A DNA stretch of 63,986 bases, filler included, from an uncultured bacterium (GTDB lineage Bacteria > CAYJOG01): assembly GCA_964371695.1 (NCBI GenBank). It is 14 parts of 14 records of this genome, joined end to end, with 100 filler letters (N's around TTAATTAATTAA, not from the genome) between each part and the next. Parts side by side here need not be neighbours in the genome. Positions count along the whole stretch, not along the records: positions 46,849 to 51,351 come from CAYJOG010000285.1; 13 more parts are not named here. The stretch is one strand, 5' to 3'. Below the pieces are notes generated by a model. It had not been told where the DNA came from. It did not search any database and worked only from the letters and a program-made list of their open reading frames with translations. A program made the translations under genes and the position numbers. How positions within the stretch are numbered: position 1 is the stretch's first letter; every line of letters begins with the position of its first letter. Positions 3,001-51,636 of the stretch are shown in pieces.

Positions 3001-3660
3001 ATATGTTCCGGGGGGGCCTTCCGTCAGACTCACCAAACTGCTCAGCGCACCATTCGTATTCGCCCCCGTGGCGGGGTTGAAGAGCGCGGCCTTCAGGTTG
3101 GCCTGACCGCTTGGTCCCTGGACATGCACTTCCAGCACGTCGCCCACCGCCACCACCGTGGCCTGGGGATCACCCTGCTTGCTCAAGATGACCTGGGGCG
3201 CGGCGGGCTGGATACCCAGTGTGTTGGTCTGCACCAAACCGGACTGCTGAAAAAATGCCTCGACGGGCGAGGGCCCCTGCTGGGGCGTGGGCTGCTGGAA
3301 CACAAAGGGATCCCCCGCCAGCCCGGGCGACAAAAACACACCGGTGAAGAAATAGTCCATCGTGAAGCCCGCCGCCGCGCCGCCCAAAAGCGTCATCAGC
3401 CCCCCAGAGGAAAGCTGTGTGTAGATGGTGAAATGCAGGGTCTGTGGCGTCCAGTTGGCGGTGACCAGCGCCAGATTCACCGGCTGGCCCGGGTCAAACC
3501 CAAGGCCCTCAATCACCACACCGGGGCTGCCCGCGATAAATTCAGCCCCCAGCGAGCCGTTGTTGTCATACATCCAGAAGGCGTGCTCGACGCTGCCCCC
3601 TGCGTTGTTGTAATAGGGGAGTCCGTTAAAGTCGAAGTAGGCCCCCGCCAGGGAGTCGGC
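1..3660 (-). CDS. Giant Ig-like repeat surface protein, distal part (runs off the window edge; absent from the ORF track)
   Basis: Manual translation of the minus frame from 3660 to 1 shows no stop (~1220 codons). Bacterial Ig-like motifs (YTLTLSASDNAGN, VDRTVPGV, NNVGPxVxI, VRYxDLFxD) recur with a 675-nt period (1755/1080/405). Confidence 0.85.
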
Positions 3661-4634
3661 GCACCACCGCCGCTGACCTGGGGCGTTGGCCCCACCGCCG
3701 CCTGCACCTGTGTGGCTGTGGCCCCACCAGCATCCTGAGCCGTGACCAAACCCATGGACCCCTGATAGGCGCCGGGTGGCCCTTCCGTCAGACTCACCAG
3801 ACCACTCAGCGCACCGCTTGTATTGGGGCCGGTGGCGGGGTTGAACAGCGCCGCAGACAGACTGCCCAAACCGCTTTGCCCCGTCAGGCTGACTTGCACG
3901 GTGTCACCCACTGCCACCACCGTGGCCTGAGGGTCGCCCTGCTTGCTCAGCGTGGCACTTGCGGACACCGGCCCACCGGAAATGATTTCCAACGCATTAG
4001 TCATTACAAGATCCAAGCCCTGGAAAAAAACCTCAATTTCGGACAATGGTGTCGAAGTCGGTTCTTGAAAAGTGAATGCTCCGCCTGAAGTGGCCGGAGG
4101 AAAAAACACTCCCGCAAAAAAGAAATCTGGGGCAATATTTCCCATGACTGAAGCAAGTGCACCTTCATCCAACTGGGTAAAAATGGTTACGGGTTTAGAT
4201 ATCCCATCTGGGATTGTAACCAATGCCAAGTTCACAGGAAGAGCCTGGTTCAAAAAGGCTTGCACGTCTCCGCCAGGTGCGCCTGTAAGAGAAACTAATT
4301 CACTAATTCCGCCTAGCCCGATAAACACTGCACCCGATCCACTTCCATCAGGCAAGCGATCATATGTTTTGTTTTGAAAATCAAAATAGCTTCCTGCGAG
4401 TAGATAGCGGCCAGTTTCTTCGGCTAATAGGGGTTGAGGGGATCCAGTGGACAAAACAGGATTCCCTTGCCCAGCCCCATTTTGGCTTTGTGCGAAGAGG
4501 TATGTATTCCAAGTAAAATTACTCGTCTGGCTAAGTGGAGGGAGAAAAACATTTTCCGCAAATCCATCCAAGACTACCGATTCAAAGCCCGGTGGAGGAT
4601 CAAGCCCAGCGACTAGGTTGGCTTGGTCTTTTTG
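3661..4634 (-). CDS. Giant repeat protein, proximal part (5' truncated; frameshifted relative to 1..3660)
   Basis: ORF 3513..4571 stays open up to the contig edge at 4634. It shares the repeat SKQGDPQATVVAVGD...AALFNPATG...TEGPPG...ATQVQAAVG with 2930-3185, which is read in another frame. Confidence 0.8.
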
Positions 4635-4733
4635 NNNNNNNNNNNNNNNNNNNNNNNNNNNNNNNNNNNNNNNNNNNNTTAATTAATTAANNNNNNNNNN
4701 NNNNNNNNNNNNNNNNNNNNNNNNNNNNNNNNN
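4635..4733. other. Artificial contig linker (N-TTAATTAATTAA-N). Same linker at ~9355, 14074, 18766, 23451, 28128, 32801, 37464, 42118, 46749, 51352, 55898, 60443
   Basis: Six-frame stop linker flanked by Ns; genes are truncated at these points. Confidence 0.99.
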
Positions 4734-4910
4734 NGCCCACAGCCCCACCACAATCAGCAGGGCCGACAAACCAAACTCAATCACACCCACCTGCTGAATC
4801 ACCCCCAAGGCCCCCACGGTGGTGCGGGGCGGCGGCGGCGCTGAAGAAGGGGCGAGCGCTTCGGGTTGTTCGGCGGGCGCGGACAAAGCGTCGTCCGTGG
4901 GCGTGGACAT
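4734..4910 (-). CDS. Hypothetical membrane protein, N-terminal fragment
   Basis: MSTPTDD...FGLSALLIVVGLW runs into the gap; TATCAT lies 6 nt before the ATG. Confidence 0.55.
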
Positions 4911-6145: not shown

Positions 6146-7843
6146 ATGCCAGAAGAAACCCGGTTGTTTATCCAGATGGACCCCGATGGCGAGGAGATCC
6201 CCCCCACCAGTCCTTTTGCAAAATATCAGGTGACGCCGCTCACGGGGGAACACCTTTCGCTGGATGAACTCACCAGCCTGCTGCCCAAGTTCCTTTATCT
6301 TTCCGACGGCCACCTCTATGAACTGAAGGGCCACATTGACCGCCACAAGGTGGTGCATGCCCGCCAGATGGCCGCGCCCGCAAGCGACATCGAATCTCTC
6401 ATTCAGCCCTCCCCCAAGGCGGCGACCTCACCCTCTCCCGCGCCCGCCCCCGATGTGAATCCCCCCAAACCTGCTCCGGCCGCCGCCGCAGCGGCTGAGC
6501 CGCCCAAAACAGTCGAAGCGGCAAAACCGGCTGCGGCCACTGCTGCGCCTGCGCCTGCCGCGCCCGCCGTGCCTGCCGCGCCCGCTGCCCCCAAAGTCAC
6601 CAGCAAAATCAACGTCCCCGGCGGTGGCGAAGGTCTCAAAAAAGTCGCCCAGCAACTGAGTCTGAAAAACGAAGACCCCTTCCTGAAACTGGTGCGCGCC
6701 AACCGCGAGAACCCGGAGGACTTCGGCATCCGCCAGAGCCTCATCAAGAACAGCGGCGATTTTTATATGAAGGCCGCCCTGGCCTTCAAGGAGAACCGCA
6801 CACCGGAACTCAGAGCGCTGTTGCGGTTCAGGGCGCTGCTGGACACGTGGTTTCTCACCGAAGAAGAAATCGCCGTCTATCACAAACTCATCGACCACAA
6901 GGAAAGCAGCGAGAACATTTTTTATGCCGATGAATGGCTGGAGATGCTGTATGCGGGCACGGTGGCCTATACCTTTGACGAAACCAAACGCACCGAGATT
7001 TACCGTCTCACCAAAAAACCGGTCAACACCCCCCAGCTTTACAACAAGGGCATGGCCGACCTGATGGGCAGCGAAGAAGCCGCCCTGAAATTTGAAATGG
7101 AGACGGTGTTTTTTCAGTGGCCGTTTTTGTGCATCGGCAGGCGCGGCAACCATTTCCCTTTTCTGGAAACGGGCATGGTCACCGGCAACCCCGCCGACAT
7201 GATGGCCAAAAAGCGGGAGGTCAACCGCCAGATGCAGGAAATGGAAAAGGTGGACAACAAACTGTTCATCCGCGAGGTGCTGGGCAAAACCGAATCGGGC
7301 CAGGAGGGATTCATAGAACTGCATCAGCAGCCCTATGTGATTCTCGCCTCGTGCGTGGCGCAAAACGCCATTTGCTGGGACGCCTGGCACCGCTGCGACA
7401 AACGGGCCAGCCGTGGACGCGTGTCTATTCCGGTGTTCCCCGAAAAGGGCCTGGACGAAGTGCTGGTGAAAGCCATGGGGGATTACCGCTGGACACTGGC
7501 CAAGGACAGCGCCATGGACTGGGTGGGCGAAGGCATCACGGGCAACTACTTCGCTTTTTACAGCGAGGAGAAAAAGAAACCCGCCGATGAATCGGCCATA
7601 GACAAGGCCCTGCCGCTGAAAGAAAACTTCATGCGCGAATATGCCACATGGCTGAAATGGGAGAGCAAGGGCATCCAGAAAATCAATAAGGATCTGCGGC
7701 CCATCTTCTGGCGTTATGTGCCCTTTGGCCCTGAACTGCGCGAGAAACTGAGCAAGGTGGCCCCCGTCTACGCCGACCTCGCGTCCAAATCCCCCATGTG
7801 GGAAAAACAGGACGCCAAAGCCAAAAAACAGAGCCGGGGGTGA
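6146..7843 (+). CDS. Hypothetical protein with Pro/Ala linker and conserved-looking C-terminal domain
   Basis: 565 aa, AGGAG RBS, host-like codon bias, Trp-rich C-terminus (CWDAW..RASRGRV.IP, GDYRW, ESKGIQK...IFWRYVPF). Confidence 0.85.
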   Translation: MPEETRLFIQMDPDGEEIPPTSPFAKYQVTPLTGEHLSLDELTSLLPKFLYLSDGHLYELKGHIDRHKVVHARQMAAPASDIESLIQPSPKAATSPSPAPAPDVNPPKPAPAAAAAAEPPKTVEAAKPAAATAAPAPAAPAVPAAPAAPKVTSKINVPGGGEGLKKVAQQLSLKNEDPFLKLVRANRENPEDFGIRQSLIKNSGDFYMKAALAFKENRTPELRALLRFRALLDTWFLTEEEIAVYHKLIDHKESSENIFYADEWLEMLYAGTVAYTFDETKRTEIYRLTKKPVNTPQLYNKGMADLMGSEEAALKFEMETVFFQWPFLCIGRRGNHFPFLETGMVTGNPADMMAKKREVNRQMQEMEKVDNKLFIREVLGKTESGQEGFIELHQQPYVILASCVAQNAICWDAWHRCDKRASRGRVSIPVFPEKGLDEVLVKAMGDYRWTLAKDSAMDWVGEGITGNYFAFYSEEKKKPADESAIDKALPLKENFMREYATWLKWESKGIQKINKDLRPIFWRYVPFGPELREKLSKVAPVYADLASKSPMWEKQDAKAKKQSRG

Positions 7844-9354: not shown

Positions 9355-9454
9355 NNNNNNNNNNNNNNNNNNNNNNNNNNNNNNNNNNNNNNNNNNNNTT
9401 AATTAATTAANNNNNNNNNNNNNNNNNNNNNNNNNNNNNNNNNNNNNNNNNNNN

Positions 9455-12400
9455 TATCCCCCGCAATCCTCCTGCATCACCACGTCTTCGTTTTCGTAAT
9501 GCCACAACGTGATGCGCGGCCCCAGCGGCCCGTCGCCGTCCGCGTCCACCGCTTTGGCCATCCGCCGCCCCAGCGGGTCATAGAAATACCGCGCCCGGCG
9601 CAGCAGCCCGCCCCCCTGCCACGCGGCGTAACCCATCAGCCGGTTTTCGCGGTCGTGGAAATATTCCTCCAGCACACCCGTCTGTTTGTGCATGCGCGTG
9701 CGCCGGTTGCCGTTTGCGTCGTATTCATATAAATATCCGTCATCCTCTGTCAGGCGATTGGCCGGGTTGTGGGCATGGGCCGCCGACAGATGACTGGCCG
9801 TGCGATTGCCCAGCGGGTCATAGGCGTATTGCTCTGGCGCGGCCACGCGGGCGGGCGCGCTCACGCTCAGGCCCTGCACGGCGGCGGCGGTGCGCAGGGC
9901 GCTGCTCAGGCGGTCCAGACTGTCATAACCATAGCGCGCGGCCACGCCGCGGCTGTCGGTGATGGCCAGAATGTTCCCCACGGCGTCGAGGTCATAGATC
10001 AGCCGCAGCGTGCGGGCGGCCTGCTCGGCCTGGGCGTCTGCCACGCGGGTGATGGTGGCCGTGGCGCTGCTGGTGTAACCCGACACGTCCTGCGCCTCCA
10101 CCGTGAGCTGGTTGGGGCCGGGCGCGAGCGGCAGCGCGGACTCAAACACCCCCTGGGCGCTGAGGCTGAGCGCCTCGCCGTTCACACGCGCACTCAGCAC
10201 GCCCACCGTGTCGCTCACCACGCCAGACGCACTCAGCGCGGCGCGCGTGGTGACAAACTGCCCCGGCACAAACGGGGCCTCGGTCAGCGACTCCTGCTGC
10301 GCGAATTCGTGCGCCAGCGCCACAAGCTCGCTGTTGGGGTTATAGGCATAACGCGTGTTCGTGCCGTCTGCCTTTTCAATCACCGTGCGCCGGTGCGCCG
10401 AGTCGTAGAAATAACGGAAAGACCACAAGGTGTTTTGCGCCCCCTCCAACTCTGCCAGCGTGGGCAGGCCGCTGTTGTTGAAACTGCGCCGCACCTCAAA
10501 AACAAAGTCATCTGCCCGCTCAAACGGATTGAGCCGCAGCGCGTTCATCAGCGGTTCTCCGGCCAGATTGCGGGTGAAGCGCTGGTCAAACACGCGAGAC
10601 AACGGCGTGCCCCAGAAAAGCTCCAGTCTGTCGGTGAGCAGGTTGTGCTGGTTGTCATAGGTGTAGTCAATTCGGGCCATTTCGTTTTCTACCCGCAGGG
10701 TCAGGTCCAGCGTGGTGTCATAGCTGTAGGTGACCACCTGATCAGCCTCTTTGCGCACCAAGCGATCCATGGCGTCATATTGATAACCGATGGTTTTGCC
10801 GTCGGGCAGTGTGACCAGCGTGAGGTTGTCTTCGGCGTCGTAGGCGTAGCGGGTAATTTCGCCCAGGGGGTTTTCTTTTTCAATCAGCCGGTTGCGGTTG
10901 TCGTAGCGCCACAAGGTGGACCGCCCCATGGCGTCTCGCAGCTCTGTCAGATTGCCGATGGCATCGTAAAAATAGCGGGTGACGTTGCCCTGGGGGTCTG
11001 TCGCCTCGGTCAGGCGGTTCATGGCGTCATAAGTGTAGAGCCGCTCCCGGCTGGCTGCGTCTTGCACACGGGTGACACGCCCGGCGGCGTCTCGCGTGAA
11101 CACCGTTTCGCGGCCCGATGGCTCCACCAGTCGGGACAGGTTGCCACGGGCGTCATAAAAGAACTGCGTCAGGTTGCCCACGGCATCGGTCATGGTGGCC
11201 ACCTGCCCATCAGGCGTGTAGGTGAAAGCGGACCTGCTGCCGCCGGGGTCTGTCTGGGCAATCAGGTTGCCGTGTTCGTCATATTCCATCGCCGTGGTGC
11301 GATGCCCGCCCGAGCCGTCGGTCTGCACCGAAATGGAAATGGGCAGGTGATAGGCGTTTTCATAGTCAATGAAGGTCTGCCGCTGGTTCACGCTGATCAA
11401 CGCCACGTCGCCACTCAGGTTGTACTCAAACTGCTCCACCTGCGTGCCCGTGGTGGATTGCACAATCTGGTTGTCGTTGTTACGCAGAATTTCCGTGCTG
11501 ACGCCGTCTTTGTTCACGTGCTTCACGGGTGAATTGAAAAAATCAGCCTGCGACGTGCGCACCCGGCCAAGGCGATCCGTGACCGAAGAAACAGCCTTGT
11601 AGGAAATCTCCTTGTCCATGGAAATGGGGTGCATGGGGTCTGAGGGCGGCGTCAGGGTGTCTTCCCGTCCCCCTGTCATCAAACTGCGGTTCCCGAACTG
11701 ATCCACAATGGCCGTGACCCGCCCCGTTTCGTTGTATTCATACCCCGTCACCACGCCACGGGGGTCGCGCTTGGTGAGCAGGCGGCCATACTGGTCATAG
11801 GTGAACTCCGTGCGCGCCCCGGATGGGTCCACAAAAGCCGTGAGGTCTCCCTGGATGTTGTGCTCAAACTGGCTGGCCCGTCCGGTTTGGTCTGCCACGG
11901 CCTGCAAATGGCCGCTGAGGTCGTAGGTGAGAAGGATAGCGCCGCCCTTGGGGTCTTCCACACGCACCAAGCGGCCTTCCGTGTCGTAAAAATACCGGGT
12001 GGCATTGCCGTTGCGATCCACCTCCCGCTGCAACAGGCCGGTCTGGGCGTCGTAAATGGTCGTCTCGCCCGATTTGGCCCGCAACACCACCTCCGGGTCG
12101 CCCTCTTCATAGGTGATGGTGCTAAAAACCCCCAGGGGCGGCTTCAGAACACCTTCCACCATCTGGTAATACTCATAACTGCCATCTGCTTGTGTGATGA
12201 ACCAGGAGCCATCAACACTTTGCCGGTGAGCATGGGAATGCCCGCCAAACCCCCAACCCCGGCCAATGGGACTGGTGCTGTGGTTCACGATAAACAGAAA
12301 GAGATTCCGGCTGGAAAAGAAAAGCTGTGAAGGGTAATTCGCCATGGAAATATCGGAATACCCCCTGAATGTGGCCTGATTCACCATGTATTGCCCAGAG

Positions 12401-16480: not shown

Positions 16481-16553
16481 CGCAAAACAGGGGGTTGGAA
16501 GTTGGAAGCGGGCCATTCCAATTCTCAACCGAAATAGCATTAACTCGGCTTAG

Positions 16554-16703
16554 CAGGGTGTTGATAAACACCCTGAAAAATCCATGGATGGATTTTACCG
16601 CTTGCAGGGGTTCCAAAAACCCCTGCAAAAGCGCCATTTTGCGAGAGCCTTGCTTGAGCAAAATGGGTTGAGAAAGGCCAGGAGGGACTTTCTCAACAAC
16701 CTG
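16554..16703 (+). mobile_element. MITE family A, 150 nt, TTAG target duplication
   Basis: TIRs CAGGGTGTTGATAAA / TTTCTCAACAACCTG, TTAG on both flanks; near-identical to 41675..41824. Confidence 0.85.
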
Positions 16704-16762
16704 TTAGAGCACTTTCGGAATTGGTGAATCATGCATCGTCTGAAAGCCCCGCCCTGGCTGGC

Positions 16763-16865
16763 GTCATTCCCGCGAAAGCGGGAATCCAGTCAAAACATAA
16801 AAACAAAAGGTTTTTTGACCTTATTCCTTACAAAAACACTGGATTCCCGCTTTCGCGGGAATGAC
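16763..16865. repeat. Inverted pair of GTCATTCCCGCGAAAGCGGGAATCCAG hairpins (family C)
   Basis: Exact inverted copies separated by an AT-rich spacer; further copies at 30852, 39266/39463, 41960. Confidence 0.9.
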
Positions 16866-17721: not shown

Positions 17722-18605
17722 AAAAACTGTCGCGCCTGAGAGCCTGTTTTAAAATCAGGGCATGTGAAACATGGTCTGATTTTAAGCAGGCTCTCGCGGT
17801 CATGAGTTTGCGAGGAGTCTTTCCAGATGCCCATTGGGGCATCTGGCCGAGCAAAGGCGATAGCGACCGCATCCGAAAGCCGAAGCTTTGTAAAAGCGGA
17901 GGTTTTCGCCCCGCAAGGGGGCTTCGCCCCCGCCAGCGGGTGGTTTTAAAAGTCCAGGACGGACTTTTAAAACAAGCTCTGAGGGGCTTCACACTCATTG
18001 AGTTGGTCATCGTGATTGTCATCATGGTGGCGATCATTGCCATTGGTGCGGTGCGCTGGCAGTCGCCCGACACATTGCGCAGCGAGGCCCTGGCCCAGCA
18101 GCTCAAGGAATATCTGGTGCGCGGGCCTGACCGCAGCAAAGGTTCGCCCTTTGGCGTGGTGCTGGTCATCCGCAACCCCGCCAACCTGCCCGCGCCGCCC
18201 AATCATCAGATGCTCTCTTTTCAGGAATACGCCGACACCACCCGCACCACGCTTGACAGTCCCTTTCCCACCGAGGTGGTCTATAACTCCGAGAGCGACA
18301 TCGCCATCAGTTCTTCTTTCGCCACCATTCCCTCGGCCACCACCACCGTGGTGTTCCGCACCAACGGTTTGGTGGAAAGTCCCATGCAGACCACGGGCGG
18401 TGCCCCCACCGGCTCCTTTGACATCCTCGTGAACAGCGTGCGGCTGCACAAGGTGGTGTTCTCGCCCGCCAGCGGCAGCGCCGTGGTGCAGGTGTGCGCC
18501 GCCGTGGGCAGCGGCACCCCCGGCGCGCAAGAGGGTGGCTGTCCCAACAAGGCCAGCGGCTGGTGCGACTCCGACAACCCACAGGAGGATTGCCTGCTGC
18601 CATGA
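17718..18605 (+). CDS. Type IV prepilin (FimT/GspH-like) with an in-frame 81-aa MITE insertion in the leader
   Basis: MKKLSRL[81 aa]RG|FTLIELVIVIVI; C-terminal cysteines. Confidence 0.85.
   Translation: MKKLSRLRACFKIRACETWSDFKQALAVMSLRGVFPDAHWGIWPSKGDSDRIRKPKLCKSGGFRPARGLRPRQRVVLKVQDGLLKQALRGFTLIELVIVIVIMVAIIAIGAVRWQSPDTLRSEALAQQLKEYLVRGPDRSKGSPFGVVLVIRNPANLPAPPNHQMLSFQEYADTTRTTLDSPFPTEVVYNSESDIAISSSFATIPSATTTVVFRTNGLVESPMQTTGGAPTGSFDILVNSVRLHKVVFSPASGSAVVQVCAAVGSGTPGAQEGGCPNKASGWCDSDNPQEDCLLP
17740..17979 (+). mobile_element. MITE family B, 240 nt, TGA duplication, intragenic
   Basis: TIRs GAGCCTGTTTTAAAA / TTTTAAAACAAGCTC; TGA at 17737-17739 and 17980-17982. Confidence 0.9.
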
Positions 18606-23550: not shown

Positions 23551-23600
23551 GGCCACGGCGGTCGAATAAATCCACGGAGGGATTTATGAGATGAGTTCTA
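23551..23600. mobile_element. MITE family F end (truncated at contig start)
   Basis: Nearly identical to 51550..51599 (...GATTTATGAGATRAGTTCTA). Confidence 0.7.
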
Positions 23601-23633
23601 GACATCCCACTTGCCCCGGCTAAAATCCGGCCC

Positions 23634-39218: not shown

Positions 39219-39265
39219 TTCCAAGTCATGCTTCCCTGAAGTCTTGTTTTTACCCATAAGTTGGC

Positions 39266-39489
39266 GTCATTCCCGCGCAAGCGGGAATCCAGATGAAACA
39301 AAAACAGAACACCTTTTTCTGTTTCTTTTTCTGTTTTCTTTCAGTGGGGCGGGCGTCCTCGCCCGCCATTTAAAGAAAAGAGATTTTTGTCCTTCTTTGT
39401 TCAGGCGGGCGGGGACGCCCGCCCCACTGATAAGGAAGAAGGTTTTTTGCTTTTTGTCCTGACTGGATTCCCGCTTGCGCGGGAATGAC
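39266..39489. repeat. Family C inverted pair enclosing an inverted GTGG-REP pair
   Basis: Outer GTCATTCCCGCGCAAGCGGGAATCCAG pair; inner GTGGGGCGGGCGTCC.CGCCCGCC pair. Confidence 0.85.
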
Positions 39490-41634: not shown

Positions 41635-41674
41635 GGGGACATTTTAGACACACGGCGATTAAGCCGGTTTTTAG

Positions 41675-41824
41675 CAGGGTGTTGATAAACACCCTGAAAA
41701 ATCCATGGATGGATTTTCCGCTTGCTGGGGGTTGAAAAACCCCCAGCAAAAGCGCCATTTTGCGAGAGCTTTGCTTGAGCGAAATGGGTTGAGAAAGGCC
41801 AGGAGGGACTTTCTCAACACCCTG
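41675..41824 (+). mobile_element. MITE family A, 150 nt
   Basis: Same length as and near-identical to 16554..16703; TTAG on the left flank. Confidence 0.85.
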
Positions 41825-41959
41825 TAATGTTAGCTCATTTTTTATTTGGGGGGCGTTGCCCCCCAAACCCCCCACTGGGAGGCCGGCGGGCCTCCCAGAC
41901 CCACCGAATATGGCGCTGCGCGCAAAAGAACAACCCAAGAAAGAAAACCATCTCCCGCC

Positions 41960-42047
41960 GTCATTCCCGCGAAAGCGGGAATCCAGTGAAAACAAAAAGG
42001 TATTTTGACCTTTGTTTTTATGCCACAGGCGGGACGCCCGTGGCTAC
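41960..42047. repeat. Family C hairpin plus reverse GTAG-REP
   Basis: GTCATTCCCGCGAAAGCGGGAATCCAG; CCACAGGCGGGACGCCCGTGGCTAC. Confidence 0.75.
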
Positions 42048-42768: not shown

Positions 42769-43608
42769 ATGGCCACCGAGGTTACGTCCGCTCCGGACAT
42801 CGACACACTGAAATCCGTCGCCGCCACACTGCGGCGGCACGTCATCCGGCAGATTCACGCCGCCCAGAGCGGCCACCCCGGTGGCAGCCTTTCAGCGGTG
42901 GAAATCCTGACCGCCCTGATGTGGGGCGGTTATGTGAAACGCGACCCCGCCCACCCCATGGACAAAAACCGCGACCGCCTGATTCTGAGCAAGGGCCACG
43001 GCTGCCCGGCGCTTTATGCCGCCCTGGTGGAGCGGGGATTTTTGCCCGAAGAATAACTGGACACCTTCCGCCGGCTGAACAGCCCGCTGCAGTGCCACCC
43101 GGACTATCGCCTGTGGAACGTGATGGAGGCCAGCACCGGCAGCCTGGGCCAGGGCCTGAGCATTGGCATCGGCATGGCGCTGGCGGCCCGGCTGGACCAG
43201 AAGGATTTTCACACCTACGTCATCCTCGGCGACGGCGAATGCAACGAAGGCCAGATTTGGGAAGCCGCCATGTTCGCCAGCCATTTCAAGGTGGACAACC
43301 TCACCTGCATTGTGGATTACAACAAGATTCAACTGGATGGCCGGGTGGAGGAGATCATGGCGCTGGAGCCTTTCGCCGCCAAGTGGGAAGCCTTTGGCTG
43401 GGAAGTGCGCGAGGTGGACGGCCACGATTTTGAGGAGCTTTTCACCGCGCTCGACGAACGGGGCGGTTACCCCGAAAAACCGTTCGTCCTCATCGCCCAC
43501 ACCGTGAAGGGCAAGGGCGTGTCGTTTATGGAAAACGAAGTGGGCTGGCACGGGATTCCCCCCAACGACGCGCAAAAAGACGCCGCCCTGAAGGAGCTGA
43601 CGCCATGA
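42769..43608 (+). pseudogene. Transketolase N-terminal subunit with an in-frame TAA at 43054-43056
   Basis: SGHPGGSLS, SKGH, LPEE*LDTFR, STGSLGQG, GDGE..EGQ.WEA, all in one frame. Confidence 0.85.
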
Positions 43609-44549
43609 GCCGCCCCATGGGAAAAGCCACCCGCGAAGCCTTTGGCGCCGCCCTGCTGGAACTTGGCGGGACCGACCCCAACGTGGTGTCTCTGGACGCC
43701 GACCTGAGCAAAAGCACCCAGAGCTACAAGTTCGGCGAAAAATATCCTGAGCGGTTTTTTAACGTGGGCATTGCCGAGGCGAATCTGGTGAGCATTGCCG
43801 TGGGCCTGGCGGCGGCGGGCAAGGTGCCCTTTGCCAGCAGTTTCTCCAGCTTTTTGCTGAACAAGGGATTTGAGCAGATCCGCGTGGGCTGCGCCTATAA
43901 CCAGCGGGCTGTGAAACTGGTGGGCAGCCACGGGGGCATCAGCCTGGGCGAAGACGGCCCCAGCCAGATGGCCACCGAAGACATCGCACTGATGCTCACG
44001 CTGCCCGGTTTTTGTGTGCTGGTGCCCAGCGACGAACACGCGGGCCACGCGCTCACACACGAACTTTACAAATGGAACGGCCCCGGTTATCTGCGGGTGG
44101 GCCGCCCCAAGGCGGCGGTGATTTACAGCCAGGGCGAGGCTTTTCCGGTGGGGGGTTTTAAAGTTCTGCAAAAAGGCGCGGACGTGCTGATGGCCGCCTG
44201 CGGCCTGATGGTGGACATCACGCTCACCGCCGCCGAAGAACTGAAGGAAAAACACGGCGTGAGCGCCACGGTGGTGGACACCTACAGCCTGAAACCCTTT
44301 CCCGAAAAAGCCTTTGCCGAACTGGCCGCCCCGCACCAACTGGTGCTCACCGCCGAAGAACACGGTTTTTATGGCGGCCTGAACAGCGTGGTGTGTCAGG
44401 CCCTGGCCCAGCACGGCCCCAAGCCCGTGACGCGGGTGGCCGTGAACGACACCTATGCCCAGAGCGGCAAACAGAACGAGTTGTTCGAGACCTATGGCCT
44501 GTCGGCCAGTCACGTGGTGAAAGCAGCGCTGGCGGGGCTGGAGAAATAG
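43605..44549 (+). CDS. Transketolase C-terminal subunit
   Basis: DADLSKST, GIAEAN, GEDGPSQ, YLRVGR, AEEH. Confidence 0.93.
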   Translation: MSRPMGKATREAFGAALLELGGTDPNVVSLDADLSKSTQSYKFGEKYPERFFNVGIAEANLVSIAVGLAAAGKVPFASSFSSFLLNKGFEQIRVGCAYNQRAVKLVGSHGGISLGEDGPSQMATEDIALMLTLPGFCVLVPSDEHAGHALTHELYKWNGPGYLRVGRPKAAVIYSQGEAFPVGGFKVLQKGADVLMAACGLMVDITLTAAEELKEKHGVSATVVDTYSLKPFPEKAFAELAAPHQLVLTAEEHGFYGGLNSVVCQALAQHGPKPVTRVAVNDTYAQSGKQNELFETYGLSASHVVKAALAGLEK

Positions 44550-45006
44550 AGCAAATTCATGTTTGACGTAGACAGAGGGCGGGGCCAGTTCTTGCCCTCT
44601 CCCTGAGAGCCTGTTTCTAAATTGCGCCATGTGAAACATGGTGTAATCGAAACAGGCTCTTGCGGGACATGGATGTCCCGCCTCAAAAGCCGAAGTGTTG
44701 AAAATACTGGGGTTTTTGCCCGCCAAGGAGGCTTTGCCTCCGCTGGCGGTAAGTTTATAAAGTCCAGGACGGACTTTATAAACAGGCGCTGAGGGAGAGG
44801 GCAGACCGTGACCGAACAGATGTGAGGTCACGGGCGGGTGAGGGGGAACAGGCTGGGAGAAAGAATCAGACTTTTTTCAAAAGTTCTCTTTCCCCCTCAC
44901 CCGCCTCAGATTTCGCTTCGCTCAACCTTCGGCTGCCCTCTCCCTCAGGGAGAGGGCAAGAAAAAAAGCTCTTATTACGTCCACGTCTACTCCGAAAATG
45001 CGCCAG
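44547..45006. mobile_element. Composite nested repeat: family G shell > family D hairpin pair (44593..44958) > family B
   Basis: Ends match 30717..30798; internal CCCTCTCCC..GGGAGAGGG hairpins. Confidence 0.75.
44607..44789 (+). mobile_element. MITE family B, 183 nt, TGA duplication, intergenic
   Basis: GAGCCTGTTTCTAAA...TTTATAAACAGGCGC flanked by TGA, inside the loop of TGCCCTCTCCC-TGA-GGGAGAGGGCA. Confidence 0.88.
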
Positions 45007-46848: not shown

Positions 46849-46947
46849 GGTATAGGGCGCGCTCAGCAGTCCGCAGGCCTCGTGGGGATAACCGGCCTCG
46901 GTGTGGCGCAGGATGGCGTTGTAAGTGTCGCGGTGAATGAAAAACAT
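46849..46947 (-). CDS. JAB/Mec (M67) metallopeptidase, N-terminal fragment
   Basis: H.EAGYPHEACGLL, directly downstream of the cysteine synthase. Confidence 0.75.
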
Positions 46948-46975
46948 CGTCTGACTGCTTTTTACCGCAGGGCGC

Positions 46976-47968
46976 TCAGGCCCCGCCGCCTTCCATTTTT
47001 TCCCAGTAAGGCTCCGAGAGGTATTTGTCGCCGCCATCGGGAAACATGGTGACGATGCACCCCTCGCCGGTGATCCTCTCGGCGATTTTCAGACACGCCA
47101 CCAGGGCTGCGCCGCTGGAAATGCCCACGAGATAACCCTCGCGCCGGGCCAGGGCCAGGGTGGTTTTCTGGGCTTCTTCGGTGCAGACGCCCATGTTTTC
47201 GTCGGCCAGGGATTGGTCATAGATGCCGGGCACAATGGCGGTGGCCATGTGCTTGAGGCCCTCCAGGCCGTGAAAGGGCACGTCCGGCTCAAAACTCACA
47301 CACTGAATGGCCGGGTTGAGTTCCTTGAGCCGTTTGGTGACGCCGCAGAACGTGCCGCTGGTACCCAGGCCCGCCACAAAGTGGGTCACGGCCCCGCCCG
47401 TCTGTTTCCAGATTTCTTCGGCGGTGGTGTGGTAGTGCGCCTGCCAGTTGCCGGGGTTGCTGTATTGATCGGGGTAAAAATAAAGGTCGGGGTTTTCTGC
47501 CGCCAGTTGGCGCGCCAGACGAATGGCCCCGTCGCTGCCTTCTTCTGGCGGCGTCAGCGCCAGTTCCACACCATAGGCCCGCAAAATGCGCTTGCGCTCC
47601 GGGCTGGCGCTTTTGGGCAGGCACAGCTTTACCTTGAACCCCAGGGCCGCGCCCAGCATGGCATAGGCAATGCCGGTGTTGCCGCTGGTGGCGTCCAGCA
47701 AAATTTTTTCGGGCGAAAAGGAGCCGGAAAGAAAACCGTTTTTCACCATGTTCCAGGCGGCGCGGTCCTTCACCGATCCGCCGGGGTTGAACCACTCGGC
47801 CTTGGCGAAAATCTTGACCCTGGGGTGAAGAGGATTGTTGCGCAGAATTGGCAACAGGGGCGTGTTGCCGATGAGGTCCACCAGGGGACTGGTGGGCAGG
47901 GTGGTTTCCTCGCGCTCCTTGAGGCTGGCGGTGGAACCCCCCCAGGGTGGGATGGGTGAGTGGTCCAT
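46976..47968 (-). CDS. cysM: PLP-dependent cysteine synthase (CysM-type)
   Basis: IGNTPL, NPGGSVKDR, TSGNTG, QYSNP, GLGTSGT, PDGGDKYLS. Confidence 0.88.
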   Translation of the reverse strand: MDHSPIPPWGGSTASLKEREETTLPTSPLVDLIGNTPLLPILRNNPLHPRVKIFAKAEWFNPGGSVKDRAAWNMVKNGFLSGSFSPEKILLDATSGNTGIAYAMLGAALGFKVKLCLPKSASPERKRILRAYGVELALTPPEEGSDGAIRLARQLAAENPDLYFYPDQYSNPGNWQAHYHTTAEEIWKQTGGAVTHFVAGLGTSGTFCGVTKRLKELNPAIQCVSFEPDVPFHGLEGLKHMATAIVPGIYDQSLADENMGVCTEEAQKTTLALARREGYLVGISSGAALVACLKIAERITGEGCIVTMFPDGGDKYLSEPYWEKMEGGGA

Positions 47969-48102
47969 TGTCCTTGACCCTATGGTAGTGGCAGGTGCAA
48001 AAAGCCACAAACAAACGATTCGTTGGCAAAAAAACCTCGCGCCACCAGACCTGCACCAGCTGCCCAGGATGTTAACCAGCACCCTGCTACCATGGCCCGC
48101 TT

Positions 48103-49473
48103 ATGGAAACCCCACCCAACCGCAACGTCAGGGGCGTGACCATCGTTATTCACACCCTGCGTTTCGCCCTGGCGGTGGCGGGTGTGGGGGGCGGCGCGCT
48201 TTTGCCGGTGATGTCGGCGGACCTCAAATTTCACCCCTCGGCCTGGGGCGGCATGGTGCTGGTGTTTGGCGCGGCCTTCATGTTGGGCCTGGTGTGGGTG
48301 CGGCGGCTGGCGGGGCGGCTGAGCCACCTCACCCTGCTGCTGATTGCCTCGGCGGGGTTTGGTGTGTCCATGGCCCTGTGGGGTCTGGCCTCCAGCCTGC
48401 TGTGGATTGGCGCGGGCATGGCGCTGTTTGGCCTTTTGGCGGCCTATCACGAAATTGGGGCCAATGCCCTGCTGATGCGCATGAATCCGGGGCGGATCAC
48501 CTCGGCCATGTCCCTGCTGAACGCCACCTATTGCATGGGGGCGCTGCTCACCCCCATGGCGGCGGGCTGGTGGCTGGCCCGTGGAGGCAGTTGGCGGCTG
48601 TTCCCCCTGGGCATCGCCATCACTTTTTTGTTCTGCACCGTGGCGTTGTGGATTTTCAACCGTTCGGCGAAAACCGTCGCACCCGCGCCTGAGACAGCGC
48701 CACCGGTAGGCCCCACTCTTAGAACCTGTTTTAAAAGTCCGTCGTGGACTTTTAAAACCCAACGCCAGCGGGGGCAAAGCCCCCTCGGCGTGGCGAAAAC
48801 CTCAACTTTTTCAAAGTTTCGATCTTCGGATGCGGCCATCCATGACCGCAAGAGCCTGTTCAAATCGCACCCTGTTTCACATGGCGCAATTTCAGAACAG
48901 GCTCTAAGAGGCGGACCCAAACCACCTTTGTTGTTGTGGCTGGGGGTGGTGTTTGTGTTGTATCTGGCCACGGAACAGACGCTGAACAACTGGGCCACCG
49001 TGGTGCTCAAACACAAGTTCACGATGTCCCCCGCCGACGCGGCCCGGCTGCTGTCGGGTTTTTGGGGCCTGATGTGGCTGGGTCGCCTGAGCACCGGCCC
49101 CCTGGCCAAACGTTTTGGCGAGGGCAAGGTGCTGGCCATGGCCGCCGGGGGCAGCATGGCGGCCCAGGTGGTGCTGAGCACCGCGCCCACGCCGCTGCTG
49201 GCGGTGGGGGCGCTGGCGGTGACGGGATTCTTCATGGGGCCGGTGGTGCCGCTGGCTCTGGGTCTGGGGGCAAAAATGGACCCCGAACGGATGGATGAAA
49301 CCAATGGGTTTCTTTTTTTCTGCGGGGCGGTGGGTCTGTTGATTGGTCCACCGGGGGTGGGTCAGGCCACGCGGCTTTTGGGTTTTCCCTCAGCCCTGTA
49401 CATCAGTCTTGGCATCAACCTGCTGCTGCTGGTGGCGGCCCTGGGCGTCAAACGGCAGTTTGAGAAAAAATAA
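48103..49473 (+). CDS. MFS transporter with an in-frame 62-aa MITE insertion in the central loop
   Basis: Two TM bundles; the peptide RTCFK...SEQAL lies between them. Confidence 0.88.
   Translation: METPPNRNVRGVTIVIHTLRFALAVAGVGGGALLPVMSADLKFHPSAWGGMVLVFGAAFMLGLVWVRRLAGRLSHLTLLLIASAGFGVSMALWGLASSLLWIGAGMALFGLLAAYHEIGANALLMRMNPGRITSAMSLLNATYCMGALLTPMAAGWWLARGGSWRLFPLGIAITFLFCTVALWIFNRSAKTVAPAPETAPPVGPTLRTCFKSPSWTFKTQRQRGQSPLGVAKTSTFSKFRSSDAAIHDRKSLFKSHPVSHGAISEQALRGGPKPPLLLWLGVVFVLYLATEQTLNNWATVVLKHKFTMSPADAARLLSGFWGLMWLGRLSTGPLAKRFGEGKVLAMAAGGSMAAQVVLSTAPTPLLAVGALAVTGFFMGPVVPLALGLGAKMDPERMDETNGFLFFCGAVGLLIGPPGVGQATRLLGFPSALYISLGINLLLLVAALGVKRQFEKK
48722..48904 (-). mobile_element. MITE family B, 183 nt, intragenic, reverse orientation
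   Basis: GAACCTGTTTTAAAA...TTCAGAACAGGCTC flanked by TTA/TAA; reverse complement aligns with the 17740 and 44607 copies. Confidence 0.9.
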
Positions 49474-49481
49474 CCGAACCC

Positions 49482-50687
49482 TCACGCACTCTTCGGTTTT
49501 GGTTTGCGTGTTTTTTCGCGGGCCTCGAGCGCCCCCATCACGGTCTGCATGTCCTTGTCGCCCCGGCCGCTCAGGCTCACCAGCACCAGCGCATCTTTTG
49601 AGAACTTGCCCTTCTGCTTCAGCACCCAGGCCAGGGCGTGGCTGCTTTCCAGCGCCGGAATGATGCCCTCCAGCAGGGTGAGCGACTCAAACGCCGAGAG
49701 GGCTTCGTCGTCGGTCACCGCCACATATTTCACACGGCCCGTCTCTTTGAAATACGCGTGCTCTGGCCCCACACCGGGATAATCCAGCCCCGCGCTGATG
49801 GAGTGGGCCTCCTGCACCTGACCGTCTTCGTCTTGCAGCACATAACTCACCGAGCCGTGCAATATGCCCACGCTGCCTTTGGAAAGCGGCGCGGCGTGGC
49901 GTTTGTTCAGGCCCTCTCCGGCGGCCTCCACGCCCACCAGCGCCACGGGTTTGTCTTTGACGAACGCGTGAAAAATGCCCATGGCGTTGCTGCCACCCCC
50001 CACACAAGCCACCACGCTGTGGGGCAGCGCGCCAAACTGCTGTTTCATCTGGCGGCGCGCCTCGTGGCCGATCACCGACTGAAAATCCCGCACCATGCGG
50101 GGGAAGGGGTCTGGCCCCACCACGCTGCCGATGACGTAGTGGGTGTGGTCCACCGTGCTCACCCAGTTGCGCAGGGCCTCGTTGCAGGCGTCCTTGAGCG
50201 TGCGGCTGCCGCTGGTGACACACACCACCTCGGCCCCCAGCAGTTTCATGCGCTCCACGTTGGGGGCTTGGCGGCGGATGTCCTCCTCCCCCATGAACAC
50301 TGCGCAGGGCAGGTCCAAAAGCGCGCAGGCGGTGGCGGTGGCCACGCCGTGCTGGCCCGCGCCGGTTTCGGCGATGATGCGTTTTTTGCCCATGCGTTTG
50401 GCCAGCAGGCACTGGCCGATGGCGTTGTTGATTTTGTGCGCGCCGGTGTGGTTGAGGTCCTCGTCTTTGAGAATCACCCGGCAACCGGCCCTGGCCGAAA
50501 AACGACGGGTTTCATAAAGCGGCGTGGGGCGGCCTACGTAGTGTTTGAGCAGGTCTTCAAACTCGGCCCAGAAGGTTTTGTCTTTCTGGGCCTGCTTCAG
50601 GGCCAGGCGCAGTTCCGCCAGGGCCGGCGAGAGGGTTTCGGGCACAAAAGCGCCGCCGAAGCGGCCAAACGTCAGGTGATCTTCCAT
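49482..50687 (-). CDS. trpB: Tryptophan synthase beta chain
   Basis: [44 protein letters not shown]. Confidence 0.97.
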
Positions 50688-50853
50688 GGCCGAAGTTTAG
50701 CAGCGGGTTTTTGTGCGGCGTAGCGGGGGATGGCCAACGACTTTTTCAGAAAAATGGCACATCGCTCCCTCTCCCCTTTTATGGGGGGAGGGAACAATCG
50801 GGCTGTTTGGATTCCAAGTCAGCAGGGAGGGGCGTAGCGCCTCGCCCGTTTGT

Positions 50854-51114
50854 TCACGCGCCAAAATTTTCAAACTGGAAATCAAAGGGTTCATCCGGCG
50901 CATGCCCCAGCGTGGCAGCGGCCAGGCGGGTGAGTTCATCGCAGGCTTTGGAAAAACTGTTGCCGTGGGCAGTGAGTTCCAGATGGGGGCACCAGGCCAC
51001 ATATTCTCCGGTGTCGCGGCTGCGGTGCACCAGCACCAGCAGGCCGGTTTCGGTGTGGGTGGGGCGCTCAAAGGTGCTCAGTTTGTGGCGGGGTGAAATG
51101 CGCTGTGTGGTCAT
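50854..51114 (-). CDS. HicB-like small protein
   Basis: GEYVAWCPHLELTAHGNSF..A.DEL pattern; GGGAG RBS. Confidence 0.55.
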   Translation of the reverse strand: MTTQRISPRHKLSTFERPTHTETGLLVLVHRSRDTGEYVAWCPHLELTAHGNSFSKACDELTRLAAATLGHAPDEPFDFQFENFGA

Positions 51115-51191
51115 GAAAAAGCTCCCTGAAAAGAATTGGCAACCACAGTTAAGCGGCCGTGGGGTGGATTTTCAACACCGGCCTCCGAAAT

Positions 51192-51219
51192 AAAAAACCC
51201 GCCCCAAACGGGGCGGGTT
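51192..51219 (-). terminator. Intrinsic terminator
   Basis: AACCCGCCCC-GTTT-GGGGCGGGTT followed by a U-tract on the minus strand. Confidence 0.7.
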
Positions 51220-51257
51220 GCCGAATGCTCTGTGCCGATAATATCCGTTTGTATCCT

Positions 51258-51342
51258 GGAGTAGCGGCGATGTCGCTATCGCCTTTGCTCGGCCAAATGC
51301 CCCAATGGGCATCTGGAAAGACTCCTCGCAAACTATCGCCGT
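51258..51342 (+). repeat. GTAG-REP hairpin carrying the 60-nt cassette (51275..51334)
   Basis: The cassette is the reverse complement of 17805..17864 with one mismatch. Confidence 0.85.
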
Positions 51343-51451
51343 CTTGTGCTCNNNNNNNNNNNNNNNNNNNNNNNNNNNNNNNNNNNNNNNNNNNNTTAAT
51401 TAATTAANNNNNNNNNNNNNNNNNNNNNNNNNNNNNNNNNNNNNNNNNNNN

Positions 51452-51599
51452 TCAAAGAGATGGCTTCTGGCAGGCCTGGATGGCCTGCCCCGAAAACCGG
51501 AGGGTTGAAAATCCGCAGGTTTTCGCGCTCGTGGCTGGAATTTACTTCCGGCCACGGCGGTCGAATAAATCCATGGAGGGATTTATGAGATAAGTTCTA
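51452..51599. mobile_element. MITE family F (truncated at contig start)
   Basis: 3' 50 nt match 23551..23600; CCAKGGANGG hairpins. Confidence 0.7.
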
Positions 51600-51636
51600 A
51601 ACTAAAGGGGTGAAACCTTCTTTCGGCGGCCCGTTC

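Follow-up and report, generated by a model that had tools for sequence, protein, structure and literature searches.

In-frame fusion of a MITE with the gene in which it resides is, in the account supplied by the 2024 review PMC10969869, not unusual, with BOX, ERIC, QMITE1, and Anabaena MITEs serving there as examples. The extreme case in that account is found with the RPEs of Rickettsia, nearly half of whose copies are located in ORFs, as based on its summary of the work of Ogata et al. (2000, 2002). The locus considered here, i.e., an element residing within an MFS transporter gene of a free-living bacterium of sediment and groundwater, is similar to RPEs as they are there summarised. That is, a short, hairpin-forming mobile repeat is present in frame in unrelated housekeeping genes, to which it contributes a stretch of peptide, at a site compatible with the protein fold, and with hosts remaining intact. 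The likeness is one of description, however. The element described here possesses clear terminal inverted repeats as well as a 3-bp TNA duplication, is read in several of its frames rather than as one conserved peptide, occupies genes at only 6-10 of 164 evaluable loci, and is carried by a free-living organism, whereas Rickettsia is obligately intracellular.

Likeness extends as well to ERIC, pneumococcal BOX, Coxiella QMITE1, and Anabaena MITEb and MITEe, which, as they are treated in PMC10969869 (see also PMC5896051), are small, non-autonomous, multi-copy, and mostly intergenic, with occasional ORF read-through. The family at issue here is a different one, and for it there exist both a natural empty site and a structural model of a host protein.

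Within the bacterial IS5 family there are groups whose target duplications are 3 bp long and of the form TNA. A TNA or C/TNA/G target is described, in what PMC4482050 says of targets, for the eukaryotic NuwaII, a DDE transposon and member of the PIF/Harbinger-IS5 (PHIS) superfamily. The duplications of the present family are similarly 3 bp in length and mostly TNA, tending toward a preceding C and, less often, a following G (counts are given below). Contrasting with that likeness, domains PF01609, PF13359, PF13586, and PF13340 yield zero matches in this 83%-complete assembly, i.e., no such transposase is seen there. Derivation of the element from an IS5/PHIS-type insertion sequence, as might be argued by analogy, is only a lead.

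The element family and its copy in the transporter gene

By ‘window’ is meant the whole stretch of DNA that was analysed, which is 63,986 nt long and consists of 14 contigs of about 4.5 kb each (C274-C288 along with C379) with N spacers between. These spacers themselves are what constitute the window's largest repeat families (D1, I1-I25). The contigs are from assembly GCA_964371695.1, which consists of 672 contigs and 3.43 Mb, at 61% G+C and with an N50 of 6.7 kb, and is rated 83% complete. One of them, C285 (window 46849-51351), carries the element-containing MFS gene. As the 14 contigs are unrelated, 64 kb is not a physical distance, and the original prediction, in positing two in-frame insertions within 64 kb, was mistaken on this point, the other copies in the window being extragenic. 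No copy other than that of the MFS gene lies within bona fide coding sequence in the window, and even the one copy having an open frame and located ahead of a pilin-like gene (Table 1) probably is 5' of that gene's true start, the N_methyl motif being found at residues 115-135 of the stop-to-stop frame.

Table 1. Positions, along the window, of the element copies and of associated features
Feature	Position	Strand	Basis or remark
Host gene, 456-aa MFS transporter, insert included, ORF intact	48103-49473	+	ORF, PF07690, coding score, model
Element-encoded loop segment, residues 206-268 (LRTCFKSPSW...ISEQAL)	48718-48906	+	translation
Left target-site duplication, TTA	48719-48721	+	read C/TT A/GA, i.e., Leu-Arg
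MITE core, 183 nt	48722-48904	+	nhmmer match 48718-48907, E 2.5e-57; delimited by end motifs
Left terminal inverted repeat, GAACCTGTTT	48722-48731	+	core start
Right terminal inverted repeat, GAACAGGCTC	48895-48904	+	core end
Right target-site duplication, TAA	48905-48907	+	read C/TA A/GA, i.e., Leu-Arg
Antisense ORF, 258 aa, open across element (RACSEI...LLKQVL)	48528-49304	-	shadow ORF, not gene
Family copy, full length, intergenic	44604-44793	-	55 nt after stop of complete transketolase C-terminal subunit gene 43605-44549
Family copy, about 60 nt extra inside, open frame	17737-17983	-	upstream of N-terminal methylation motif of pilin-like gene

A BLAST search of the genome using 48700-48925 returned at least 45 matches, with the closest other copy 90% identical among the 40 of 196 candidates that were scored. 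Three rounds of nhmmer supplied 132, 208, and then 238 matches. Of these, 237 do not overlap one another, among them 61 of nearly full length and 38 that reach the end of a contig, and they make up 225 loci on many contigs. For analysis of ends, 53 full-length copies that are away from contig ends were used. Their ends are conserved, and with as many as 3 mismatches tolerated, GAGCCTGTTT and AAACAGGCTC served as motifs for delimiting 49 of them. The resulting terminal inverted repeats of the family have the form GARCCTGTTT...AAACAGGCTC.

Triplets flanking the delimited copies are identical to each other in 31/49 and are one base off in a further 13/49, versus 0/49 in a control using triplets shifted outward. 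TNA is present on both flanks of 29/49, the base 5' of the left triplet is C in 40/49, and the base 3' of the right triplet is G in 23/49, so that the target resembles C-TNA-G. A 5-bp duplication is indistinguishable here from one of 3 bp, with the net added length identical either way. Core sizes fall into classes of 181-184 and 171-174 nt, with 183 nt the length of 26 of the 49, and core plus 3 is a multiple of three in 33/49. The family, that is, is a MITE: short, present in multiple copies, possessing inverted ends, associated with a 3-bp target duplication, and having an empty site in a relative.

As to an autonomous partner, none was found: nowhere in the assembly, which is 83% complete and in which repeats are poorly assembled, is a transposase enclosed by a widely spaced pair of the element's ends. 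Beyond the assembly, a 27-nt terminal pattern has zero exact matches among GTDB species-representative genomes and JGI metagenome contigs. The family is seen, however, in Logan contigs of runs X1-X3 and X5 and, as peptide, at residues 221-284 of an ENA-sourced protein of 572 aa (P0155). In the collections searched the family appears, going by sequence matches, to be confined to this lineage. It is new to those collections, while in-frame MITE insertion as a phenomenon is already known.

The copy in the MFS gene is exactly what had been predicted of it, namely 183 nt plus 3 nt, or 62 codons, in frame (183 + 3 = 186 nt as the net gain). Its TTA and TAA duplicates differ by one base, and that difference is synonymous in the host's frame. 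The host ORF crosses the element as ...PPVGPTLRTCFKSPSWTFKTQRQRGQ...HGAISEQALRGGPKPP..., with the resulting peptide, LRTCFKSPSW...ISEQAL, hydrophilic (mean Kyte-Doolittle of -0.65), of net charge +8, and approximately 70-80% identical to translations of intergenic copies. The phase used by the host gene is free of stops in 14 of the 26 copies of 183 nt, and thus no later repair need be assumed. Instead the gene was kept open as core and duplication together are 186 nt in length and the sub-family is stop-free in the phase employed. As RNA the element folds into local hairpins arranged one after another (-76.8 kcal/mol, z of -7.32). No Rfam family matches the element; a sub-threshold Prion_pknot match found in its flank was taken to be due to chance.

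The transporter gene with and without the insert

The protein matches PF07690 (MFS_1) at 95.2 bits (E of 5e-27), versus a curated cut-off of 33.4. The gene's neighbours, both of them on the opposite strand, are ordinary PLP-enzyme genes. Coding potential was scored using a 3-periodic, order-4 Markov model, which for held-out windows of 150 nt was right about the frame 98.8% of the time, an accuracy that is self-consistent rather than independent as the held-out ORFs are from the same model-selected gene set. A plain codon-usage model, right for no more than 77% of held-out windows, had been tried and was replaced. In the host's frame the N half has Markov log-odds of +47.1 and the C half of +48.7, and the insert scores negative, at -17.0. 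The per-codon score of the N half (0.229) is found inside the normal range of the gene set.

As had been claimed, both the sense ORF and the antisense phase are open across the insert. Outside of the insert, along the MFS gene, no antisense frame scores as high as the sense frame, and it is for this reason that the antisense ORF is taken to be a shadow ORF.

The original prediction had called for comparison with MFS relatives, and these relatives do lack the insert. A paralogue located on C473 (L061, 35% identical) along with homologues P0003 and P0004 align on both sides without the roughly 60 residues. A deep search of 1.84 billion representatives resulted in 730 matches at E <= 0.001, typically of 385-405 aa and aligning in two stretches, one before approximately residue 200 and the other after approximately 275. 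In an alignment of 51 sequences, i.e., the host protein plus 50 homologues, query positions 186-283 consist of 98 residues in the host protein versus a median of 32.5 (range 29-77) in the homologues, meaning that in these 50 distant relatives the central loop is about 65 residues shorter. No closer MFS orthologue was found among 40 other genomes (all ‘same domain’ kin), JGI metagenome contigs, or GTDB representatives.

A much closer relative was found instead in run X5, which is from groundwater and from a different study than sediment runs X1-X3. There, record 25 (1230 nt) shows 41 differences versus 48300-48651 and 47 differences plus 4 gaps versus 48916-49300, making this orthologue about 88% identical over the matched stretches. 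Where the window possesses 264 nt, the orthologue possesses 72 nt, a replacement that is known by its length. The difference, 264 - 72 = 192 nt, is that of the 186-nt insertion plus 6 nt, i.e., plus two codons of loop difference. Run X5 contains the element family as well, with high summed depth over the element, and thus a relative that possesses the family has an empty site here. This empty site, going by comparison of the two sequences, is the decisive evidence that what is seen is an insertion rather than a natively long loop.

The two junctions of the insert are found as well in contigs from sediment runs, ones differing at 0 positions from the window. Contigs of X1 and X3 cross the left junction (48366-48745 and 48332-48747) and contigs of X1, X2, and X3 cross the right junction (48792-49179, 48848-49300, and 48842-49050), though runs X1-X4 are from one study that may be the assembly's own source and as such are not independent with regard to the junctions. 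No single Logan contig covers the whole of the element.

The gene and its X5 orthologue show 88 differences, of which 35 were listed. Of the listed ones, the third codon position accounts for 18 (binomial p of 0.02), and of the 30 codons changed by these same 35, 16 are changed synonymously while 14 display mostly conservative replacements. This test spans both lineages since their split and not just the time since the insertion. In the protein collection, the same 456-aa protein is present on 8 contigs, the longest 57,971 nt, while a variant with 2 substitutions, both of them in the C-terminal half and neither in the insert, is found on one further contig. The host gene is intact and under constraint; decay of this gene, which could have undone the original prediction, is contradicted by the normal coding potential on both sides of the insert along with the third-position bias seen among the listed differences.

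Placement of the insert between the two transmembrane bundles, also predicted from the sequence, is borne out by an AlphaFold2 model based on the 51-sequence alignment (mean pLDDT of 85.9, pTM of 0.83). This model consists of 12 long helices in two six-helix bundles, 7-191 and 275-455, with the insert between helices 166-191 and 275-306. Residues 205-242, 244-250, 252-256, and 259-262 are without secondary structure and have pLDDT values of less than 50. As modelled, that is, the insert is an unstructured loop on a confidently predicted 12-helix MFS fold. As is established for the MFS, the loop joining helix 6 to helix 7 lies on the cytoplasmic side.

Copies of the family in other genes

To what extent copies are found within genes was judged using the same Markov model rather than curated gene calls, and 61 of the 225 loci are too near to a contig end to be judged. 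This leaves 164 evaluable loci, for which the adjacent 150-nt windows were scored. Neither flank is coding at 73 of these and just one flank is coding at 63, while convergent genes are found at 5, divergent genes at 5, flanks on the same strand and in different frames at 9, flanks in the same frame with stops between at 2, and flanks in the same frame that is open throughout at 7. This flank test missed the MFS copy, the loop codons beside the element scoring weakly, and a through-ORF test was added. By its strict version the frame must be open through the element, with at least 40 codons per side, and the flanks must score at least 8 and be top of six frames.

Six of the 225 loci pass the strict test. 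They are found in the MFS gene on C285, a GlnE gene on C38, a 1211-codon frame with a PD-(D/E)XK nuclease domain on C18, a 725-codon frame on C201, a methyltransferase gene on C369, and, as two tandem partial copies, a frame on C431. The hosts, that is, are unrelated and intact, with those of C201 and C431 not assigned to a family, and that of C201 having no homologues beyond its own cluster. For the GlnE gene, the alignment with homologues from 13 other genomes is limited to the part located downstream of the element, and location of that copy inside of coding sequence rests on coding potential, not homology. Passing only a lenient test are copies on C377, C393, and C115 along with a second copy in the C18 frame, with that of C393 doubtful because a stop sits just upstream. 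Taken together, host frames make use of the element in no fewer than four distinct phases and orientations. The antisense frame of the element as found in the shadow ORF of the MFS locus is the one which the host ORFs on C201 and C18 read. Separately, gene call P0002 begins inside of an element copy, and the stop-to-stop frame of a paralogous MFS gene runs through one.

The expectation of many more in-frame copies genome-wide thus is only partly realised. There are others, 5 strict and 4 lenient, but these are a small minority of copies, the in-gene share being 6-10 of the 164 evaluable loci.

Eleven loci with same-strand coding flanks were considered as possible split genes and rejected as such. 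At these at least one neighbour is complete on its element-facing side, and where Pfam domains are found on both sides these are of different families or represent two full copies. A gene disrupted by a copy, that is, was seen at 0 of 11 candidate loci.

For the 183-nt copies, of which there are 26, stops are absent from 44 of the 156 pairings of frame with copy, or about 28% (8, 8, 14, 5, 0, and 9 of 26 over the six frames). As compared with this expectation, intragenic copies are open more often than chance, contrary to the outcome named as refuting the original prediction, with 6 of 6 strict cases open and none of the 11 candidates a disruption. Six open and none broken is unlikely under neutrality, 0.28^6 being about 5e-4, a figure that is rough, other size classes being present among the six. 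The census is accounted for, with no special mechanism required, by purifying selection against insertions that are disruptive. Stop-free frames are also in surplus within the copies themselves, at 1.29 per copy. Dinucleotide shuffling leaves 0.77 +/- 0.10, and 0 of 200 shuffles attain the value observed, though this test overstates the surplus as the copies are partly palindromic and, while related by descent, are treated as independent.

Interpretation and significance

The reading that we prefer, at a probability of roughly 0.88, is of a tolerated insertion into a length-variable inter-domain loop, one that is a survivor of selection against insertions which are disruptive. By this reading a non-autonomous transposon (MITE), mobilised in trans by a putative transposase, would have inserted at a C-TNA-G-like target, at Leu-Arg codons, in the loop that joins the two six-helix halves of the MFS protein. 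With 186 nt added and no stop in the phase that was hit, the gene would have remained open while gaining 62 residues. The resulting segment, basic, hydrophilic, and predicted to be disordered, is found in the only region of an MFS protein whose length varies freely. Folding and function most likely have been retained, and the allele persisted. What is observed is the insertion itself and its limits on either side, a relative's empty site, and a host gene that is both intact and constrained. That the insert is translated, that it is neutral or nearly so, and that in-frame copies are survivors of selection are instead what we infer. The suggestion that such copies are a source of new peptide segments consequently stands in its literal sense, as the segments are encoded, while translation or usefulness of these segments would be a further claim.

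A broader and unlikely possibility is that the family has been shaped for survival within genes, acting as a recurrent donor of disordered, basic loops, and as such would be an independent, RPE-like instance of coding selfish DNA. Its basis is that core plus 3 is so often a multiple of three (33/49) and that stop-free frames are about 1.7 times what composition predicts. If true, then an RPE-like system would exist outside of obligate intracellular bacteria, and with a datable pair of filled and empty MFS alleles.

Exaptation, by which the 62 residues would have been recruited for a function, serving for instance in regulation or interaction as part of the cytoplasmic loop, and then kept by selection, is quite improbable. 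A net charge of +8 would fit the cytoplasmic side, the filled allele is known as two variants with neither of the 2 residues that distinguish them located in the insert, and there is the surplus of stop-free frames. Lack of change over 62 residues between two variants carries almost no statistical weight, however, and the surplus is from a test that counts related copies as independent. In addition, the insert's coding score is negative, it is predicted to be disordered, its sequence is explained by element descent given the similarity of its peptide to translations of intergenic copies, hosts make use of at least 4 element frames, and neither the X5 orthologue nor the paralogue nor any of the 50 homologues, to judge from their sequences, would need it.

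It is very improbable, too, that the transporter has been inactivated without its frame having been broken, i.e., that the gene is a young and still-open pseudogene, dispensable through its paralogues, rather than the tolerant host that we prefer. The genome does possess at least two MFS paralogues (C473 and C235), and the constraint signal may largely predate the insertion. Yet the insertion is not brand new, being at most 90% identical to the other copies scored (40 of 196 candidates) and with target duplicates that have diverged; all 456 codons nevertheless are still open, with normal coding potential on both sides. The point of insertion also is an inter-domain loop that in homologues ranges from 29 to 77 residues, and the intact allele is seen on 9 contigs as two sequence variants. 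Finally, misplacement of a repeat copy between the two halves of a gene during assembly has a negligible chance of being correct since, despite the fragmentation of this assembly, the matches touching contig ends (38/237), and the lack of a Logan contig spanning the whole element, both junctions are crossed without difference in three runs, the flanks are the two halves of a single gene, with these halves directly joined in the X5 orthologue, a proper TNA duplication is present at junctions at which frame is exactly kept, and 8 other contigs, the longest of 58 kb, carry the same 456-aa product.

In-frame MITE insertion is a documented but rarely well-resolved route to new protein loop segments. 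The MFS case is unusually clean, with exact boundaries, an empty site in a relative that is about 12% diverged, an intact as well as constrained host, and a segment that is placed by a model in the tolerant loop between the domains. It serves also as a warning for the annotation of metagenome-assembled genomes, as copies which are open in several frames lengthen gene calls and create shadow ORFs. The family, in addition, could serve as a lineage marker as well as provide material on the tolerance of new disordered segments by membrane proteins.

Stop codons as possible favoured insertion targets

Among the 49 full-length MITE copies, genome-wide, for which both ends could be placed by terminal motifs, 4 have as their flanking TNA triplet the stop codon of the incoming coding frame. 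That stop lies instead one base further inward in 4 more, with each of the 14 other offsets tested accounting for 0–2 copies. As many intergenic copies are located exactly at gene ends, stop codons are thus suggested to be favoured TNA targets for this element within a 61% G+C genome.

Multiple copies and mixed ends

Two frames each hold two copies (see table), the tandem partial ones of contig C431 giving rise to a duplicated 43-residue peptide. There exists as well a related element family, D11, similar in architecture but possessing a different end. One copy (contig C527, 1201-1380) has the D11-type end on one side and the usual end of the MITE family on the other, and matches to the nhmmer profile of the MITE often are limited to model positions 1-120/150. 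These many partial matches suggest modular, chimeric sub-families.

Features of the window and of assembly GCA_964371695.1 (C, contig)
Feature	Location	Strand	Remarks
Spacers	window 4635-4734, 9355-9454, then every ~4.6 kb		contig joins
Example MITE copies, genome-wide stop-codon check	C56:6119-6301; C326:1752-1934; C380:2215-2395; C117:1255-1435		
1211-codon frame, PD-(D/E)XK nuclease domain	C18:6089-9721	-	two separate in-frame MITE copies, 6929-7077 and 9420-9549
Frame with two tandem partial MITE copies	C431:403-2445	+	
D11	window 23551-23603, 51550-51602		end ...AAATCCNNGGAGGGATTTATGAGATNAGTTC; both at contig starts
D7, second small repeat family	window 16759-16815, 39262-39318, 41956-42012		palindrome ATTCCCGCG-AAA-GCGGGAAT
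D4	window 16550-16704, 41671-41825		
Direct repeats D2, D3, D10	C274; window 797-975 / 1472-1650, 2926-3118 / 3690-3882		
Paralogous MFS frame	L061:913-2331	-	

Other repeats and lineage representation

The top repeat families of the window (D1, I1-I25) were rejected as biology, these being the spacers, i.e., 44 N, 12 bases and 44 N, which join its 14 contigs. The palindromic D7 repeat resembles the dRS3-type repeats of Neisseria, and two of its copies are adjoined by D4, a 155-nt repeat of 90% identity. The direct repeats of contig C274 (179-193 nt, 74-76% identity, spaced 675-764 nt) look like domains repeated within one large gene.

All 40 genomes retrieved as relatives of this assembly are only ‘same domain’ kin, and neither the MFS gene nor the MITE was found in the GTDB representative genomes searched. 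The lineage seems to be thinly covered by, or unplaced in, the reference set.

Upstream copies and gene calls

MITE copies found upstream of true starts come to be included both in gene calls and in stop-to-stop frames. With the SLH-domain protein P0002, for example, the called N terminus is MPKQNLRTCFKSPSW..., and a signal-peptide-like start follows only after the MITE copy. The upstream, N-terminal part of the paralogous MFS frame similarly includes ...VYKVRPGLYKPTADGGKAPLA... Read-through of upstream MITE copies, that is, represents an annotation hazard for this genome.
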